Positions 16,046 to 22,806 of a stretch of DNA of 64,000 nucleotides are shown one piece after another. The stretch's first letter is position 1, and each line of letters starts with the position of its first letter. Location of the stretch: NCBI GenBank assembly GCA_030837625.1, contig JAUPKF010000001.1, positions 23,496-87,495 on the forward strand, written 5' to 3'. The position numbers were made by a program, and so were the translations under genes. Source of the stretch: Patescibacteria group bacterium. Its GTDB lineage: Bacteria; Patescibacteriota; Minisyncoccia; Moranbacterales; UBA2206. Under the pieces are notes generated by a model. It made no database searches and was not told the origin of the DNA. It worked only from the letters and a program-made list of their open reading frames with translations.

Positions 16046-16483
16046 AGTCAGTACGAGTTGCAGCATGCGAATAGCGCACTACGAACGCGCCCATGCGAAT
16101 AATAATTATTGAAAAAACAGCAGTAATTAAAAAGCGACACAACCTTTGAAAACACTTGTAACAAAAATACATCTTTGCGTGTAATATGATTGCATGCAGG
16201 GATGTGTTTTTTTGCTTGCCCCGTGCGAGCGTAGCGAGTTTACGGGGTTCGTGAAAGGCAAGAACTTTGACAATTTAATGAAATATAGTCTAAATCTTTA
16301 TTGGTTCGAGATCCCTCGACTCGTCCGACGATTACGTCGAACTCGCTCGGGATGTGATTTCGTGGCCAAATCAAAGATTTGGACGAAATCACAATTTTTT
16401 GCGATTAGTCCTCGTCCCGCTTCGGCGGGACAAATAGAGTCTATTCAAAATCAAGAATTTATATTCTTTATATAACATTTTTT

Positions 16484-16523
<40 letters not shown>

Positions 16524-16977
16524 GATAAGGCATGCAAGTCGCATGGGTTAGACCCATGGCAAACGGGTTAGTAATACATAGGAACGTACCCCTAAGTCGT
16601 GAATAACCTGGAGAAATCCAGGATAATACACGATATGTTCTACGGAATAAAGATTTACCCCGCACCAAATGCTTGTGCAATTTGGTTGCGACTAAATGTT
16701 AAAGTTGTACTTTTGAAGTACGAACATTTGGTGCGGGGTTTATCGCTTAGGGAGCGGCCTGTGTCCTATCAGCTTGTTGGTGAGGTAAAGGCTCACCAAG
16801 GCTATGACGGGTAGGGGGCGTGAGAGCGTGACCCCCAACATTGGAACTGAGACACTGTCCAAACACCTACGGGTGGCTGCAGTCGAGAATATTCCACAAT
16901 GGACGAAAGTCTGATGGAGCGACGCCGCGTGCGGGAAGAAGGCCCTTGGGTTGTAAACCGCTTTTAATCGGGAAGAA

Positions 16978-17337
16978 ATTGTGTCTCACTATTGTTTGGT
17001 GAAAAAATGTTATGTTTCTTTTTATCTTTTTGATTGAGAGGAGGTAAAAGATGAGCTTGTCAGGAAATTATATTTATGAGGTTCAAGCAGAATATCCTGT
17101 CGAATGCTACACTTGTTCCGGCAGAGAGGACAAGGATGAATGTAGAAAAAGGCGACGAGAAACCCAGCTCAAAATACGTGACAGCTTCATTTTTGTTCCC
17201 AAGAGAGAATGCTCTTGCCGGGCAAAACTTCCGTATCCCCTTCATAAAGGAGAGTAGCGATGCGGGATTGCGGAACCTCGCGGTCTCGCAATCTCAATTC
17301 TTAAAGTAAAAATTACAAAACAATAGTGAGGCACAAT
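16978..17337 (+). other. Intervening sequence 1 in the 16S gene, about 360 bp, in the V3 region (E. coli roughly 455-480). It is bracketed by a 17-nt inverted repeat and contains a 68-aa Cys-rich ORF at 17051-17257.
   Basis: Conserved 16S sequence stops at 'gggaagaa' and resumes at 'ttgacggtaccg'. The insert begins 'attgtgtctcactattg' and ends 'caatagtgaggcacaat', which are exact reverse complements. The internal ORF 'MSLSGNYIYEVQAEYPVECYTCSGREDKDEC...' has a plausible 'gaggaggtaaaagATG' ribosome-binding site. Confidence 0.7.
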
Positions 17338-18008
17338 TTGACGGTACCGATTGAATAAGAGGTTGCTAACTCTGTGCCAGCAGCAGCGGTAATACAGAGA
17401 CCTCAAGCGTTATCCGGATTTATTGGGCGTAAAGAGCATGTAGGCGGATATGTTAGTCAGACGTCAAATCTTCGAGCTTAACTCGAAAACTGCGTTTGAA
17501 ACGGCATATCTTGAGGAAGTGAGAGATCAATGGAACGTATGGTGTAGCAGTGAAATGCGTTGATATCATACGGAACACCAAAGGCGAAGGCATTTGATTG
17601 GCACTTTTCTGACGCTGAGATGCGAAAGCGTGGGTAGCGAATGGGATTAGATACCCCAGTAGTCCACGCCGTAAACGATGCATACTAGGTATTAGGAGAA
17701 TCGACCCTCCTAGTGTCCAAGCTAACGCGATAAGTATGCCGCCTGGGAAGTACGAGCGCAAGCTTAAAACTCAAAGGAATAGACGGGGATCCGCACAAGT
17801 GGTGGAGCATGTGGTTTAATTCGACACTAAGCGAGGAACCTCACCAGGGCTTGAAACCTAGCTGCATTGTATGGAAACATACAAGCCTTCGAGGGTGCTA
17901 GGCAGGCGTTGCACGGTCGTCGTCAGCTCGTGCCGTAAGGTGTTCTGTTAAGTCAGGAAACGAGCGCAACCCCTATCGCGTGTTACAAGTGTCACGCGAG
18001 ACTGCCCA

Positions 18009-18133
18009 GAACTTTGGGCGTTAGCCCAAAGTAGTAGCATGTATCATGTAGAATGTATTATGTATGCAATTTTATACATTATACTTCCTACAAAATACTT
18101 TATACTACTTTGTGAGCGATAGCGAACAAAGTT
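18009..18133 (+). other. Intervening sequence 2 in the 16S gene, about 125 bp, between the 'gagactgcccag' and 'tgggaggaaggcgggg' blocks (E. coli roughly 1130-1140).
   Basis: AT-rich insert flanked by the inverted repeat 'gaactttg' ... 'caaagttc'. The insert opens with its own hairpin 'ctttgggcgttagcccaaag'. Confidence 0.6.
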
Positions 18134-18854
18134 CTGGGAGGAAGGCGGGGATGACGTCAGATCAGCGTGGCCCTTTGACGCCCTGGGCAACACACGTGCT
18201 ACAATGGCCGAGACAAAGGGTTGCCAAGCCGCAAGGCGGAGCTAATCCCAAAAACTCGGTCTCAGTTCGGATTGAGGTCTGCAACTCGACCTCATGAAGC
18301 CGGAATCACTAGTAATCGTGAATCAGCTATGTCACGGTGAATACGTTCTCGGATCTTGTACTCACCGCCCGTCATACCAAGAGAGTCGGTAATACCCGAA
18401 GATCACGTTTCAAAGCGTGAGCCACGGTAGGATCGATAATAAGGGTAAAGTCGTAACAAGGCATCCGTAGGGGAACCTGTGGATGGATCACCTCCTTTCT
18501 AGGGAGAATTTGGTAATAACCGAGAGTACTTCACGTTAAGACGCATAGGGTCAAACCTAGCGTTGTGAAGTATGGTTGTTATCCGCTGGTCGACCCCGAT
18601 GCAAATCGGGGAACAGCAATGCCTAACAGAGCTAACAGAATCTGTAGTAAGTTTTGTACAGCTTACGGTAAACTCTTATAGGACTAATCGCAAAAAATTG
18701 GGATACTATAAAATGAAAACACCTTGAATGGTGTTTTTGTCGTTTTCTCCTTGGGAATGGTTCATTCGGTTGACTGACCTGGCATAAAAATGTTAGCTTT
18801 TAGTTGGGCAGAACTTTGACATATAAATGCGTTATTAGATGAGGGAGGCAGTTT

Positions 18855-19181
18855 ATGCTTAAAGAAAAGGAACCGCATTTTTTCAAAGGCAGTCCGATTC
18901 ATCTTGGCAATGGGGCAGTAGTTACTCCCATTATCAGAAACAAGAAAAGCAAGAAGGCGGACAAACTGATTTCATTTCTCCAAGGAGCCAGGTGGATAAG
19001 GTGCCTGCACCAAAAGGATTGCATTAATGCTACTCAGAGCTATGATGGATTTTCCTGTGAAAACTGCCCTCTCAAGGGAAAGTTGGAACACACTTTCGCT
19101 TTCAATAAGGCGCGGGCTACTCAAGATGCCCTGCAATGCGCGGAGCTTCTATTGGAGGCGTTCAAAGGCGGACTGGCGTAA
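18855..19181 (+). CDS. Hypothetical Cys/His-containing protein (possible small zinc-binding protein).
   Basis: ORF with 'gagggaggcagtttATG' as RBS. Contains 'CLHQKDC' and 'CENCP'. No family was recognised. Confidence 0.35.
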   Translation: MLKEKEPHFFKGSPIHLGNGAVVTPIIRNKKSKKADKLISFLQGARWIRCLHQKDCINATQSYDGFSCENCPLKGKLEHTFAFNKARATQDALQCAELLLEAFKGGLA

Positions 19182-19469
19182 TAGTTCATTTTTTAAGGAG
19201 GATTTTTTTGAGAGGCTAGCGATTTCAATCACTGGTCTCTTTTTTAATTTATGGCATATTAAAAAAGCAAGGCGTAAATTATTTACTTTGTGGCTGTTTG
19301 GCGGTATTATAAAGAAGTAAAAAGTGTTCAGTAACTAGTTAAATAACAACTTTATGCCGATAAAAAAACTGGCGGACAAAAACACCCGAAAACTCACCCG
19401 CATGGGCCGCGCCGGCGGAAGTCTCGGTCTTCACCCTGTTAAATAATTTTAAATTTTTCTATAATTTAT

Positions 19470-19724
19470 ATGCATTATGTCTATGTTCTACGAAGTGGCA
19501 AGGATAATATGAATTATGTGGGTTATAGTAAAAATTTAAAATTAAGATTTGAGGAACACCAGAAAGGGAGAGTTGAATCAACTAAAAATAGGAGACCGTT
19601 AAAATTGATATATTACGAAGTATGTTTAAATCAACAGGATGCTACTCATCGGGAAAAATATTTAAAAACTTATCATGGCAAGATGTTTATTAAAAATCGT
19701 CTCAAATCTTATTTAACAGGGTGA
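19470..19724 (+). CDS. GIY-YIG nuclease-superfamily protein (small UPF0213/YhbQ/Slx1-like endonuclease).
   Basis: 'YVYVLRS ... NYVGYSKNLKLRFEEHQ' matches the GIY...YIG...R...E core. Compact at 84 aa. Confidence 0.7.
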   Translation: MHYVYVLRSGKDNMNYVGYSKNLKLRFEEHQKGRVESTKNRRPLKLIYYEVCLNQQDATHREKYLKTYHGKMFIKNRLKSYLTG

Positions 19725-19816
19725 ACGATTCCCAAAGAAATCGTTACCGCTTTGGGGTGGGAGGAGAGACAGAAGGTGGTGGTTAAGAAATCTGGATCAA
19801 AGCTTATTATTGAAGA

Positions 19817-20608
19817 TTGGAAAAAGTAGGTATTTTTATGCAAACGAATTTTGACCTAAGATTAGCGAATGATTATACCAGCTCATCACAAAAGATTAAG
19901 GTGATGAGTGAGAATTGGGTTGGAAAGAATACTTTTTGTCCTGCGTGCGGTTCGGCAGTTAGGCATTTTGAAAATAATCGTCCGGTGGCTGATTTTTATT
20001 GCGATGATTGTAAAGAGGAATATGAGCTCAAAAGCAAGAAAGATTCAATGGGAACAAAAATCGTAGATGGAGCCTATCGGACGATGATAGAAAGGTTGAA
20101 AAGTGACAATAATCCCAACTTCTTTTTTCTGAATTATGACTTGAAAAATTTTGTGGTTATGAATTTTCTGGTTATACCGAAACATTTTTTTATTCCGGAG
20201 ATAATTGAAAAAAGAAAACCGCTTTCTGTGAATGCGCGGCGGGCCGGCTGGGTTGGATGTAATATTTCCCTTCTAAATATCCCGCAGACAGGCAAAATAT
20301 TTTACATTAAAGACGGAAAAGTTGAAACTAAGAAAGATGTGCTGTTTGGTTGGCAGAAAACTTTGTTTTTGCGGGAAGAGAAACAAACTGATGCGAAGGG
20401 TTGGCTTCTGGACACAATGAATTGCATAGACAAAATTGGCAAAGCGGAGTTTACTCTTGATGAGGTGTATGCTTTTGAAAAAGGATTGAAAGAAAAGCAC
20501 CCGGATAATAACTTTGTAAAAGACAAATTGCGCCAACAATTGCAGGTTTTACGCGACAAAAACTACTTGGAATTTGTGTCGCGTGGGCGTTATAGATTGG
20601 CGATTTGA
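19817..20608 (+). CDS. DpnI-like, Dam-replacing family, methyl-directed type IIM restriction endonuclease.
   Basis: Shares signature blocks with S. pneumoniae DpnI as recalled from memory: 'CPACG...HFENNRPVADFYC', 'DGAYRTMIERL..DNNPNFFFLNY', 'RKPLSVNARRAGWVGCNI', 'EFTLDEVYAFE' and 'LRQQLQVLRDKNYLEF..RGRYR'. The last block is the C-terminal winged-helix region. Confidence 0.8.
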   Translation: MEKVGIFMQTNFDLRLANDYTSSSQKIKVMSENWVGKNTFCPACGSAVRHFENNRPVADFYCDDCKEEYELKSKKDSMGTKIVDGAYRTMIERLKSDNNPNFFFLNYDLKNFVVMNFLVIPKHFFIPEIIEKRKPLSVNARRAGWVGCNISLLNIPQTGKIFYIKDGKVETKKDVLFGWQKTLFLREEKQTDAKGWLLDTMNCIDKIGKAEFTLDEVYAFEKGLKEKHPDNNFVKDKLRQQLQVLRDKNYLEFVSRGRYRLAI

Positions 20609-20668
20609 CATAATTTCGAAAACGATCAAAAATTGATCAGAAATAAACATTAACTTCTGTTCAATTCC

Positions 20669-20926
20669 ATGAAAATTTCAAGAGAGTCAGCGTTAAAAAT
20701 TCTAAAATATTTGAACGAACATCCCGATTTCTATTTCCCGTTTCAAGTAATGTGTCATGAATATTTGGATGAAGGCGGCGAGATGATGGAAATTGAGTCG
20801 GGTGAGTGGGAGATGATTGCGAGCGACGATAAATACCAAACTTTCGAGATTTGGGAAAACTTGCAAGATTTATATCCCGAAACACTGGAACTGATGGTGA
20901 AAGGTTTTTTGGAGAAAATTACCTAA
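20669..20926 (+). CDS. Hypothetical acidic small protein. Its TAA stop is followed in-frame by a 78-codon startless ORF (20927-21163).
   Basis: ORF. Rich in Glu/Asp and aromatics ('GEWEMIASDDKYQTFEIWENLQDLYPE'). Confidence 0.4.
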   Translation: MKISRESALKILKYLNEHPDFYFPFQVMCHEYLDEGGEMMEIESGEWEMIASDDKYQTFEIWENLQDLYPETLELMVKGFLEKIT

Positions 20927-21200
20927 TCTGAGAAGGAAGTTGGTAATTTCATTTTTTATACAAGCAAAGGATTCACATTTCAACCAGACTCCAAAGAGGA
21001 CTCACAGGGAGTCGAAAATTGCCAGGTTCTCGGATGGGGCAATGGAAATAGCGCCGAAGAAGCTTTTGAGAAGTTCAAAGAAGAGAATCCTTGGTTGTGG
21101 AAGTTGAGACTTGAGAGAGTAGTTGGAGTTGAATTGAAAAACAAAAAAAGAGTTTCATTTTAACCTGAAATAAAAAGCTGTAAAAACTTTTTATATCATT

Positions 21201-21413
21201 ATGAAAACTAAAACTCAACCAAAAACCTACACCTGCCAGAATTGCAAAAACACAAATGAATCCGTAGGTATTATCCAGAAAGAAATAAATTATTATTCTC
21301 TATGTTTGGAAACGAATCAGTGGAAGGATTTTCATGGAAATGGAAGCGTCGAATCGAAGGAATATTTTTGTTTGAATTGTAAAGAGAAAATTGATGATTT
21401 GGAATTAGACTAA
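21201..21413 (+). CDS. Hypothetical zinc-ribbon protein.
   Basis: Two CxxC pairs ('CQNCKN', 'CLNCKEK'). Confidence 0.4.
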   Translation: MKTKTQPKTYTCQNCKNTNESVGIIQKEINYYSLCLETNQWKDFHGNGSVESKEYFCLNCKEKIDDLELD

Positions 21414-21736
21414 TCAAAAGATTTTAGCTTCCTCCTCATCATGCACGAGCATTTATTTATTTTCAAAAAATAACCTTATGTCTTACGTAAGATTCCAACA
21501 CAAAACCTACGGTGAGATGGTGACGACACCGGAGAATTGGATTCAATATCCGCTTTTTGACGCGACAGATGATGAAGGTAATACTGTGCCGGTGTATGAA
21601 AGTGATTGTGAGAATCCAAAGTATGCTGGAGAGTAGAAGCGCAAACTTCTTTCCATTGCACAGCATGCTACGTAGCACCCCGGTGAAATAAAGATACATT
21701 TAACGAAAATAAACTAATTTTAAATTTTTTCAAACT

Positions 21737-22018
21737 ATGCTAAAAGAATACGTCGCTTATCTCAAAGACAACCCGCAGGGGTATTGGTTCAAGCACAAGC
21801 TTTACGGTTGGGGCTGGGTGCCTGTCAGATGGCAGGGTTGGCTTGTTGTGGCTGTCGGTGTAGCTGTTCTCTTTGCTGGCGTTTGGGTCGGGGAAACGGA
21901 TGACGCACCAGGAGCGGCACTTTTGGGATTTCTCCTGATGATTGGACTTATATTCACTTTCGGTTTTTGGAAAGGCGAAAAGCCAAAATGGCAGTGGGGA
22001 CCGCCAAAAGACAAATAG
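21737..22018 (+). CDS. Hypothetical Trp-rich membrane protein with two predicted transmembrane helices.
   Basis: 'GWLVVAVGVAVLFAGVWV' and 'LLGFLLMIGLIFTFGFW'. Confidence 0.4.
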   Translation: MLKEYVAYLKDNPQGYWFKHKLYGWGWVPVRWQGWLVVAVGVAVLFAGVWVGETDDAPGAALLGFLLMIGLIFTFGFWKGEKPKWQWGPPKDK

Positions 22019-22187
22019 TATTCTTTGAGATCTATATTAAAAACGCCACAAGCTGGCTTTTTTGGCGTAAGAAAAATCTGCATAGTCTTCGTTTCGCCCG
22101 AAATAATTCTTTGTGGTTGACGGTAGTGTATTATGGGTATATATTCATAATATAAATATATCCAAAATAGAAAGGCGGGTGATAATT

Positions 22188-22442
22188 ATGCCGAGAAAAA
22201 ATGGAACAGGCCCAGCGGGAGCGGGGCCGATGTCGGGACGGGGAATGGGCTCTTGTCAAAAAGGGTTCGGTTCGGGCCTAGAAATGGGCAGGGGCTATGG
22301 CAGGGCAATGTGCGGATGGTTCTATCGCAAATATCAGGCAATGCCAACGGAAGAAAGAAAAGATTTGCTAAAGTCCGAGATTGAGGATTTGAAACAAGAA
22401 ATGCAAATGGTGGAGGAAGAACTGAGAGAACTGGAGAAGTAA
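22188..22442 (+). CDS. DUF5320-like small protein with a Gly-rich N-terminus and a C-terminal coiled coil.
   Basis: 'MPRKNGTGPAGAGPMSGRGMGSCQKGFGSG' followed by 'LKSEIEDLKQEMQMVEEELRELEK'. SD 'aaaggcgggtgataattATG'. It is the typical partner of DUF134 proteins. Confidence 0.5.
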   Translation: MPRKNGTGPAGAGPMSGRGMGSCQKGFGSGLEMGRGYGRAMCGWFYRKYQAMPTEERKDLLKSEIEDLKQEMQMVEEELRELEK

Positions 22443-22530
22443 TTTCCATCAGGAGCAGTCTTTCTCTTTCCTTAGCTAGCGAGGAAGGAGAAGATTGTTT
22501 TTGATGATATAATTAAATCAGTTAACAATT

Positions 22531-22806
22531 ATGGTAAGACCAAGAACATGCCGAAGGCTTCGTTTCAGACCAAAAGCGCACTATTTCAAACCTCAGGGCG
22601 TTTCAATGCATCAATTGGAAGAAGTGGTTCTAACCAAGGAAGAAATGGAAGCGGTAAAACTCAAAGATTTTGACGGGATGGAACAAACTGAAGCTGCGGA
22701 AAAAATGAACACCTCGCAAAGCACTTTTCAGCGGATTTTGTCTTCTGCCAGAGCGAAAATCGCGGAGGCGATTGTCAGGGGCAAAGCGTTGAGAATCGAA
22801 GAATAA
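22531..22806 (+). CDS. DUF134/UPF0251-family predicted DNA-binding protein.
   Basis: 'MVRPRTCRRLRFRPKAHYFKPQG' is the DUF134 N-terminal signature. The C-terminal half is helix-turn-helix-like: 'TEAAEKMNTSQSTFQRILSSARAKIAEAI'. Confidence 0.65.
   Translation: MVRPRTCRRLRFRPKAHYFKPQGVSMHQLEEVVLTKEEMEAVKLKDFDGMEQTEAAEKMNTSQSTFQRILSSARAKIAEAIVRGKALRIEE

Follow-up and report, generated by a model that had tools for sequence, protein, structure and literature searches.

Background

The pneumococcal endonuclease R.DpnI, which cleaves GATC sites only if their adenine is methylated, is encoded in Streptococcus pneumoniae by the cassette dpnC-dpnD; its complementary counterpart is the DpnII cassette (dpnM-dpnA-dpnB). 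The protein family PF06044 ("Dam-replacing family") owes its name to the dam-replacing gene (drg/drp) of Neisseria. Here, we report a computational analysis of a locus of this kind from a genome bin of Patescibacteria, i.e. the candidate phyla radiation (CPR), located on contig JAUPKF010000001.1, of which a stretch of 64 kb was analysed as a whole (referred to below as "the window"; all positions are counted from its first nucleotide). The locus comprises an orthologue of dpnI, a small gene upstream of it that is split by an insert encoding a GIY-YIG nuclease, and a set of short genes and gene remnants downstream. The closest relatives of the nucleotide-sugar dehydrogenase encoded next to it come from Moranbacteria. 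We consider it likely that a Patescibacterium related to Moranbacteria obtained the region by horizontal transfer and that its ~2.1 kb (19354-21473) form a methyl-directed restriction module of the DpnI type (type IIM).

The roles of individual residues of R.DpnI have been described both for the catalytic and zinc sites (PMC3424567) and for the GATC readout, the methyl pocket and the winged-helix domain (PMC4117772). For the GIY-YIG insert, the most relevant precedent is the Ssn family of single-domain GIY-YIG site-specific nucleases acting on single-stranded DNA (ssDNA), with flanking hairpin repeats known as NTS/SRM (Chenal et al. 2025, PMC11893778). According to the authors, the layout NTS-ssnA-NTS resembles an insertion sequence, and only 2% of NTS occur inside genes (PMC11893778).

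Results and discussion

A DpnI orthologue with a complete set of functional residues

The 256-aa product of the central gene matches PF06044, i.e. the PD-(D/E)XK catalytic domain, over profile positions 1-182 of 183 (E-value 2.5e-80), and PF17726 (DpnI_C), i.e. the C-terminal winged-helix domain, over profile positions 1-69 of 70 (E-value 8e-32). Profile searches of the PDB identified the pneumococcal R.DpnI (4ESJ/4KYW, 8e-89, residues 7-260; 52% identity), and the PADLOC model mREase_II (3e-118) classified the protein as a type II methyl-directed restriction enzyme. A preliminary description of the region, made without database searches, had recognised the DpnI signature and named the PF06044 profile beforehand as the check to be made; the profile match and the conservation of all catalytic residues bear it out. 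The window protein shares 18 of the 18 characterised residues of R.DpnI, and 110-120 of its 120 closest homologues keep each of them. They comprise the catalytic residues E25, D53, E64 and K66, the Cys4 zinc site formed by two CxxC motifs that flank the PD aspartate (C34, C37, C55 and C58, corresponding to C34, C37, C56 and C59 of R.DpnI), the GATC-readout residues S17, N48, D78, R126 and R135, the methyl-binding cleft L129, R135, W138 and G140, and the residues K229 and R231 by which the winged helix binds Gm6ATC. Judged by its sequence, the window enzyme displays every feature that characterises the DpnI family; restriction of Gm6ATC-containing DNA, as proposed at the outset, remains its best reading, with every residue known to matter in R.DpnI conserved. 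The gene is intact and its product is probably still active. The identification as such is routine, since this restriction family is well known and the protein is in no way unusual within it.

Homologues of the 256-aa protein are abundant (7,762 of 8,000 scored candidates at E<=1e-20), and many of them carry the names of Moran-, Staskawicz-, Falkow-, Nealson- or Pacebacteria. In NCBI, the patescibacterial homologues already bear the label "restriction endonuclease" or "DpnI domain-containing protein"; the window protein itself is still "hypothetical". Because nearly all listed homologues are 254-257 aa long, we place the start of dpnI at the ATG codon at 19838 and not at the TTG codon at 19817. 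The NCBI record contains exactly this 256-aa form and the 263-aa form is not on record, so the 263-aa ORF (open reading frame) initially proposed for 19817-20608 was correct as to the identity of the enzyme but not as to its length. An origin from a phage or a plasmid was also considered and rejected: full-length DpnI homologues number zero in the phage collection, and the plasmid collection yielded only two mislabelled Neisseria chromosomes. The latter entries (NZ_CP119142.1 and NZ_CP119140.1) are 2.17-Mb chromosomes of Neisseria gonorrhoeae filed as plasmids, in which a DpnI homologue with 46% identity is located 3' of leuS.

The partner gene and the double-GATC spacer

A partner gene is found directly 3' of dpnI in every lineage examined (the window and the loci L003, L006, L097, L098, L104-L109 and L123; L-numbers denote loci and contigs fetched for comparison), at a distance of ~60 nt where measured. 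In the window it begins with an 85-aa ORF that shares 67-72% identity with residues 1-85 of a 140-142-aa gene product encoded 3' of dpnI in L003 and L006; partner genes of 140-144 aa follow dpnI in L003, L006, L079/L123, L097 and L098. The family has 987 members at E<=1e-3; every named member is "hypothetical", and just one of the 120 listed has a Pfam domain. Three architectures can be distinguished: the N-terminal domain followed by a helical C-terminal domain; a different second domain, which we call x79, standing alone as a protein of 80-84 aa (L104, L106); and the N-terminal domain fused to x79 in a single ORF (L105, L108, L109). Relatives of x79 were found at seven metagenome loci (45-61% identity), in 7/7 cases directly downstream of dpnI.

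The partner of the window belongs to the fused type, with a TAA codon at the position where the homologues have Asn, and the identical TAA is present in the independent assembly L001. Truncation of the partner by recombination at 20923 can be ruled out, as the fusion homologues show that the frame continues and that TAA replaces an Asn codon. Because x79 has no start codon of its own here, it is probably unexpressed. The acidic 85-aa protein (pI, i.e. isoelectric point, 4.3) listed in the preliminary description is therefore the first domain of a conserved two-domain DpnI-linked protein cut by a stop codon, and the 78-codon continuation of the frame (20927-21163) had been overlooked. The accompanying suggestion that it might be a DNA mimic found no sequence or fold match. 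Pfam searches at E<=1 with the 85-aa ORF, the 140-142-aa homologues and x79 returned nothing above noise, DpnD-PcfM included, and x79 found no match in PDB profile searches either; a HicB-like resemblance of x79 received no support from the same searches. The AlphaFold2 model of the 140-aa partner form is confident, with a predicted local distance difference test score (pLDDT) of 89.7, and revealed no specific fold match.

A conserved element lies between the two genes. Following a TTGACA that overlaps the dpnI stop codon and a gap of 13 nt, the spacer contains the palindrome GATCAAAAATTGATC with two GATC sites (20624 and 20635), 11 bp apart, which bracket a -10-like AAAAAT. The motif TTGACA-N13-GATCAAnnATTGATC is near-invariant in six aligned lineages and stands directly after the dpnI stop codon in 11 of the 13 DpnI loci (L003, L006, L097, L098, L104-L108 and L123 among them), whatever the type of partner; its conservation far exceeds that of coding DNA. 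The spacer thus has the promoter-like appearance of a sigma-70-type element with a GATC-bracketed -10 box, and the position of the palindrome beside dpnI may hint at methylation-sensitive control, or at binding by DpnI itself.

A split AbrB-like gene heads the module

Translation of the DNA upstream of dpnI revealed two pieces of an AbrB/MazE-like gene, the second of which ends 8 nt 5' of the dpnI start codon. Rejoined, they encode a 60-aa SpoVT/AbrB (MazE_antitoxin) protein (PF04014, E-value 8.8e-6, 26.0 bits against a cutoff of 24.7), 80% identical to the product of an intact 59-aa gene located 5' of dpnI in L097; the DpnI protein of L097 is 83% identical to that of the window. An AbrB-like gene precedes dpnI in the window, L003 (where it is degraded), L006, L097, L106 and L123. 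The split gene (19354-19431 and 19725-19829) was absent from the preliminary list of small ORFs.

Alignment with the DNA of L097 defines an exact empty site, with an insert extending from 19432 to 19724 and no target-site duplication. The ends of the insert form a perfect inverted repeat (19430-19446 and 19709-19725; TTCACCCTGTTAAATAA and TTATTTAACAGGGTGAA), 17 nt long if one flanking base pair per side is included, and in ssDNA they pair on folding (-35.6 kcal/mol, z = -4.1). The 84-aa GIY-YIG ORF fills most of the insert and runs into the right inverted repeat, which supplies its final codons. PF01541 covers residues 1-71 of the protein, the only other match being T5orf172 below its cutoff (E-value 0.0036, 18.2 against 20 bits), and the closest PDB sequences are the UPF0213 proteins 1zg2 (9e-4) and 1ywl (3e-3). 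Its homologues number 5,574; the best 120 of them share 79-92% identity with it, save for one 134-aa outlier, and those with a named source come from Patescibacteria. There is a single copy of the element in the window and none in viral contigs. A structured RNA or an intron in the insert was considered and rejected, as Rfam yielded no match in 19250-21800. The GIY-YIG ORF had been recognised correctly before, without the repeat that encloses it, and had been grouped with DpnI in a presumed defence or mobile island. Because the ORF is the cargo of an inverted-repeat insert that splits the AbrB-like gene, we conclude that the GIY-YIG gene is a selfish mini-element and not a defence partner.

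A methylase scar at the right end

The 70-aa protein with two CxxC motifs encoded after the partner (Zn70) has homologues with 56-69% identity, which follow the partner in L104 and L108 and are encoded further downstream in L006 and L106. Directly 3' of the Zn70 stop codon, the module ends with a remnant of a DpnA-like N6/N4 DNA methylase, likewise overlooked in the preliminary ORF list. A tblastn comparison with the 250-aa methylase of L089 shows 74% identity over residues 232-250 (E-value 3.6e-4 or 1e-3; 46 of 62 nt identical). Remnants of the same methylase occupy the same place in L108 (37 aa, 95% identity, 1e-18), L104 (34 aa, 82% identity, 1e-13) and L006 (19 aa), i.e. in loci that combine it with a Zn70 homologue.

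In other Moranbacteria metagenome-assembled genomes (MAGs), this N6/N4 methylase is the last gene of a DpnII-type cassette, with the order AbrB-like gene interrupted by the GIY-YIG element, DpnM-like methylase (PDB 2dpm, 9.6e-72), 136-aa gene, DndB-like gene, DpnII endonuclease (PF04556) and N6/N4 methylase. As the head gene is shared and the tail of the methylase is left as a scar, the DpnI module points to the replacement of a Dam-type restriction-modification (R-M) system.

Several further observations concern these cassettes. The DpnII-type cassette occurs in the Moranbacteria MAGs GCA_000990805.1, GCA_001784805.1 and GCA_001784915.1 (L087-L096, e.g. L087, 9524-13453); the MAG GCA_003512165.1 carries DpnI, its partner and a KAP NTPase in place of the DpnII cassette. 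An alternation of DpnI and DpnII behind the same left flank (L079 versus L087) was considered and withdrawn, as L079 joins two other contig types exactly. So does L122 from the same assembly (ERZ27254733); in both, the switch falls inside the ~290-bp GIY-YIG element, and both are probably repeat-induced assembly chimeras, real recombination at the element being the less likely alternative. The 8-bp palindrome TTACGTAA occurs at 21483 in the window and also in L006 (11883), L106 (7204), L112 (1422), L115 (358), L118 (1068) and L121 (606). It follows the methylase scar or the Zn70 gene at a distance of a few bases and precedes AbrB-like start codons by ~45 nt; with 26 occurrences in 1.4 Mb of fetched DNA, it is no more frequent overall than expected by chance.

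The module as a whole and its predicted mode of action

The boundaries defined by conservation (19354-21473) coincide with a stretch of low GC content (0.33-0.38 at ~19250-21750, against 0.44 for the window), and other CPR genomes carry the same gene set among genes for Fic, Mrr, KAP NTPase, SocA and other R-M proteins. Because of the low GC content and because the copies in related organisms lie among defence genes, we regard the module as imported. The preliminary description had placed a defence or mobile island at 18855-22806; its core is upheld by the same two observations, and its full extent is not, the low GC content being confined to the interval given above.

As predicted from sequence, the enzyme would bind Gm6ATC in its fully methylated form, through the PD-(D/E)XK domain as well as the winged-helix domain, and then cut; the cleavage step is assumed because all characterised residues are conserved. 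DNA arriving from Dam-type or DpnII-type donors (phages, plasmids, neighbouring or host cells) would be destroyed, and the unmethylated GATC sites of the cell itself would be spared. The conserved build, which recurs in many CPR genomes, consists of the AbrB/MazE-like DNA-binding gene, dpnI, the promoter-like double-GATC spacer, the acidic partner, the CxxC protein and the 3' scar of the methylase. Given the scar and the shared head gene, the module would descend from the replacement of a DpnII-type (Dam-like) R-M cassette, following a logic that may be the same as in the pneumococcus, with its DpnI/DpnII cassettes, and in Neisseria, with its dam-replacing gene.

A DpnI enzyme is expected to coexist with unmethylated GATC. 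No homologue of DpnM, E. coli Dam, DpnII or the DpnA-like methylase and no D12/DPPY-type motif was detected in the 64-kb window, except for the scar at 21414-21473. GATC occurs 208 times in the window (observed/expected ratio 0.77 with a Markov model and 0.89 with a zero-order model) and 2-4 times in the DpnI-partner cassettes of six lineages (3-4 expected), so that avoidance of GATC, for which there is no signal in either set, was dismissed. Under-representation of GATC had been suggested as a check of the DpnI assignment; as a host of DpnI has no reason to avoid the site, this count does not discriminate. As a separate observation, adenine methylases of the D12 class adjoin dpnI in L104 (2083-3150) and L006 (10750-11595). 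They are not Dam/DpnM-like (no match, or a different PDB match) and presumably have another specificity, and therefore do not conflict with the function of DpnI.

Points against the module and alternative explanations

Certain observations weigh against a functional, imported DpnI module that replaced a DpnII cassette. The activity and specificity of the enzyme are deduced from its sequence, and a Dam-type methylase may possibly be encoded elsewhere in the genome, of which 64 kb are in view. The scar in the window is short (19 codons, E-value about 1e-3) and convincing mainly through its longer versions in L104 and L108, and an exchange of DpnI and DpnII at one locus is not supported, the sole contig that exhibits it (L079) being probably chimeric. 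The borders could not be confirmed by synteny, as proposed initially: in the 65 loci around relatives of the nucleotide-sugar dehydrogenase (<=77% identity), the order of the upstream genes has nothing in common with that of the window. Finally, both accessory genes are damaged, the AbrB-like gene by the 293-nt element and the partner by a nonsense codon between its domains, so the cassette might be decaying or mis-regulated.

Taken further, the last point leads to the idea that the whole cassette is a decaying relic, in which dpnI is still open but unexpressed or useless and has no present role in defence. We regard this as unlikely. The split head gene, the interrupted partner, whose second domain is left without a start codon, and the reduction of the methylase to a scar are all consistent with decay, but dpnI is full length with every functional residue conserved, the promoter motif of the spacer is intact, and independent assemblies of two further sequencing runs show exactly the same arrangement. 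Moreover, loci of the L123 type carry the GIY-YIG element in the AbrB-like gene and nevertheless have an intact dpnI and partner; therefore insertion alone does not imply decay.

That the GIY-YIG nuclease and DpnI constitute a two-nuclease defence system, with the former as a functional partner, would agree with the position of GIY-YIG ORFs immediately 5' of dpnI in the window and in L123/L124. We consider it highly improbable, as the ORF resides in a discrete insert with inverted ends that interrupts another gene, as the closely related DpnI loci L097, L006, L098 and L106 lack it, and as near-identical elements are also found in front of DpnII cassettes, HIT/flavodoxin genes, a SWIM-like gene, AAA_21, an EPSP-synthase-family gene and RbfA. 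Equally improbable is a nutritional role, in which an episymbiont poor in nucleotide synthesis would fragment the DNA of Dam+ hosts or neighbours for salvage: it draws on general knowledge of the CPR lifestyle and on the great frequency of DpnI homologues in CPR (>7,700 matches, many named Patescibacteria), whereas the ORF begins directly with the DpnI fold, with no signal peptide or secretion context, the neighbours in related organisms are defence genes and the family is established as a restriction enzyme. A restriction module of the DpnI type thus remains our preferred explanation.

Flanking genes and genomic context

The coordinates of all features are given in Table 1. The eight ORFs of the preliminary description are all present on the + strand, at or nearly at the positions assigned to them there.

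Table 1. Features of the DpnI-type module and of its surroundings in the 64-kb window
Feature	Position	Strand	Basis
16S rRNA gene (context only)	16478-18498	+	Rfam RF00177, 1376 bits, full model
Terminator-like hairpin 3' of the 16S gene	18713-18740	+	Consensus scan
108-aa Cys-rich ORF	18855-19181	+	No family match
AbrB/MazE-like gene, N-terminal 26 codons (MPIKKLADKNTRKLTRMGRAGGSLGL)	19354-19431	+	Rejoined with 19725-19829
293-nt GIY-YIG mini-element, ends CACCCTGTTAAATAA (19432-19446) and TTATTTAACAGGGTG (19709-19723)	19432-19724	+	Empty-site alignment with L097
84-aa single-domain GIY-YIG nuclease ORF	19470-19724	+	PF01541, 4.4e-15
AbrB/MazE-like gene, C-terminal 34 codons and stop (TIPKEIVTALGWEERQKVVVKKSGSKLIIEDWKK, then stop)	19725-19829	+	Found by translating DNA taken as intergenic
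R.DpnI orthologue, 256 aa (predicted type IIM, Gm6ATC-dependent endonuclease)	19838-20608	+	PF06044, PF17726, PDB 4esj/4kyw, PADLOC
Spacer element: TTGACA (overlaps dpnI stop), 13 nt, palindrome GATCAAAAATTGATC	20605-20638	+	Alignment, promoter-like match
DpnI partner gene, N-domain, 85 aa, pI 4.3, in-frame TAA at 20924-20926	20669-20926	+	Homologue alignment
Partner second domain x79, 78 codons, same frame, without own start codon	20927-21163	+	Relatives from metagenome scan
70-aa double-CxxC protein (Zn70)	21201-21413	+	Homologues at other DpnI loci
Scar: last 19 codons (SKDFSFLLIMHEHLFIFKK, then stop) of DpnA-like N6/N4 DNA methylase	21414-21473	+	tblastn against L089 methylase
52-aa ORF, outside the module, putative	21478-21636	+	No match in any library or fetched locus
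93-aa protein with two hydrophobic segments, outside the module	21737-22018	+	Hydropathy
DUF5320 protein	22188-22442	+	PF17253, 1.4e-17
DUF134 protein (sigma-70 region-4-like helix-turn-helix)	22531-22806	+	PF02001, 1.9e-21

On the left, the 108-aa Cys-rich ORF has no match in Pfam, NCBIfam, PADLOC or PHROG and 17 representative homologues at E<=1e-3 among 1.8 billion proteins. It accompanies the module only in the Logan contigs L001 and L002, which come from the same population, and its membership in the module is not supported. On the right, the 52-aa ORF, the membrane protein, DUF5320 and DUF134 are ordinary neighbours outside the module. DUF5320, DUF134 and the membrane ORF had been counted as part of the presumed defence or mobile island, but they lie beyond the right scar, have the GC content of the genome and show no tie to defence; in other loci, DUF5320, DUF134 and the 52-aa ORF have no link to dpnI. 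The membrane ORF, with a GC content at the level of the genome, has a 48% identical homologue in the L003 island. The ORF of DUF5320 is open from 22113, and the Pfam match begins at the Met codon at 22188, which is the probable real start. The next gene to the right encodes the nucleotide-sugar dehydrogenase (TIGR03026, 8e-121).

The 16S gene upstream of the region is 2021 nt long, against 1533 nt for the model, with inserts of 85 nt near model position 210 and of 348 nt near position 458. The 64-kb window contains no 23S or 5S gene and no tRNA gene; the rRNA genes are therefore unlinked, as is typical of CPR (cf. PMC11270868). Adjacency to the 16S gene, taken earlier as one sign of a defence or mobile island, is not evidence of mobility. 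Long ORFs of real appearance are almost all on the + strand throughout the window (1-64000), and the GC skew is positive across the profiled 12-28 kb.

The GIY-YIG/hairpin element in other contexts

The same ends enclose elements of 81-85% identity in three other contexts with unrelated flanks. The element is located inside an AbrB-like gene, after codon 12, in the P0130/P0149 loci, and after codon 6 of a different AbrB-like gene in the P0140 loci; in the P0160 loci, the interrupted gene is a 56-aa membrane ORF. The AbrB-like gene of the P0140 type recurs, together with ~45 nt of upstream sequence, before the SWIM-like gene, AAA_21, the EPSP-synthase-family gene and RbfA. One identical 84-aa GIY-YIG protein (P0140) was seen in L112-L121 in at least four different left-hand contexts, and these contigs are mostly shorter than 2 kb, as expected of a repeat that breaks assemblies. 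With respect to the AbrB-like target, the insertion positions are before the ATG codon and after codons 6, 12, 26 and ~30, a pattern suggestive of a target preference. ORF-less solo hairpins sharing these ends were also found: one lies in the AbrB-like gene of L003, which is degraded, one within that of L075 and one 8 nt upstream of that of L097; a further solo hairpin (L045, 9805-9858, CCCTATTAAAT ... ATTTAATAGGG) lies ~150 nt upstream of the nucleotide-sugar dehydrogenase gene of another Moranbacterium.

A possible reading, which we put forward very tentatively and consider rather less than probable, is that the ~290-bp unit is an undescribed autonomous mobile element. Its Ssn-like single-strand nuclease may act on the hairpin formed by the ends of the element itself, insertion may occur without duplication of the target and leave ORF-less solo hairpins behind, and the preferred landing sites may be in or beside AbrB-like genes that head defence cassettes. 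The element may also supply the homology for an exchange of DpnI and DpnII cassettes. In addition, the double-GATC promoter together with the partner proteins may constitute a methylation-sensing control circuit of DpnI.

As regards the general features of transposable elements, terminal inverted repeats are present, and a target-site duplication and a recognised transposase are absent. To our knowledge, strand transfer has not been reported for GIY-YIG nucleases. The element is similar to IS200/IS605, REP/RAYT and miniature inverted-repeat transposable elements (MITEs) in its very small size, in the lack of a target-site duplication, in the ssDNA hairpin formed by its ends and in its ORF-less solo derivatives, but it has neither a Y1 (HUH) nor a DDE transposase, the GIY-YIG nuclease being its only ORF, and it terminates in genuine inverted repeats. 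Free-standing GIY-YIG homing endonucleases (phage T4 Seg, I-TevI type) share the insertion in or next to a single gene family, here the AbrB-like one. They differ from the 84-aa protein, which has no DNA-binding domain (only PF01541), and from an element whose ends are set by inverted repeats and whose positions in the target gene vary.

The closest described counterpart appears to be the Ssn family, although we describe the element as Ssn-like in layout and do not class it as a member. A small single-domain GIY-YIG protein (84 aa, against ~100 aa or fewer in the family) bracketed by hairpin-capable inverted repeats and solo hairpins of the same sequence scattered in L003, L045, L075 and L097 are common to both. 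In contrast to the Ssn arrangement, the gene lies here inside one split hairpin (ends of 13-17 nt) and not between two complete ones, the right end of the element is coding sequence and the element interrupts genes. SRM hairpins as flanks of an Ssn gene were ruled out, as the published degenerate SRM pattern (HGTCWY...RNCYNB) has no match on either strand of the window and the ORF is enclosed by one pair of inverted ends. The clean pair of insertion and empty site shows mobility directly, whereas in the Ssn paper of 2025 it could be no more than suggested (PMC11893778).

Comparison with known DpnI systems

CPR bacteria appear to follow a complementary DpnI/DpnII logic like that of the pneumococcus, with different Moranbacteria MAGs carrying one or the other system, and this bears on how phages and the flow of DNA are partitioned among ultra-small bacteria. 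The ~1,000 DpnI-linked "hypothetical" proteins and the invariant double-GATC promoter are concrete targets for experiments, and the GIY-YIG/hairpin element in AbrB-like genes, the partner family and the GATC palindrome are the side-findings that most deserve attention.

The pneumococcal DpnI system and the module of the window have in common the same two-domain enzyme, with all catalytic, zinc, GATC-readout and methyl-pocket residues shared at 52% identity, and a small gene 3' of the endonuclease. In addition, a DpnII-type cassette is present in organisms related to the source of the window, where it encodes a DpnM-like methylase, a DpnII endonuclease and a further methylase, and a scar of the latter methylase ends the DpnI module. 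However, the partner of the window has no similarity to DpnD-PcfM (no match at E<=1) and its family occurs in three domain arrangements. Moreover, the conserved parts here extend to the AbrB-like gene at the head, the spacer with its two GATC sites and the CxxC protein, and the host belongs to the Patescibacteria.

The neisserial dam-replacing gene offers the second parallel, namely a DpnI homologue found where a Dam-type system stood, as suggested here by the scar and the shared head gene; the homologue from N. gonorrhoeae is 46% identical to the DpnI protein of the window. Yet the Neisseria gene follows leuS (L111), with no partner-like gene or GATC-palindrome spacer visible, whereas the system replaced in the Patescibacterium looks like a whole DpnII R-M cassette.

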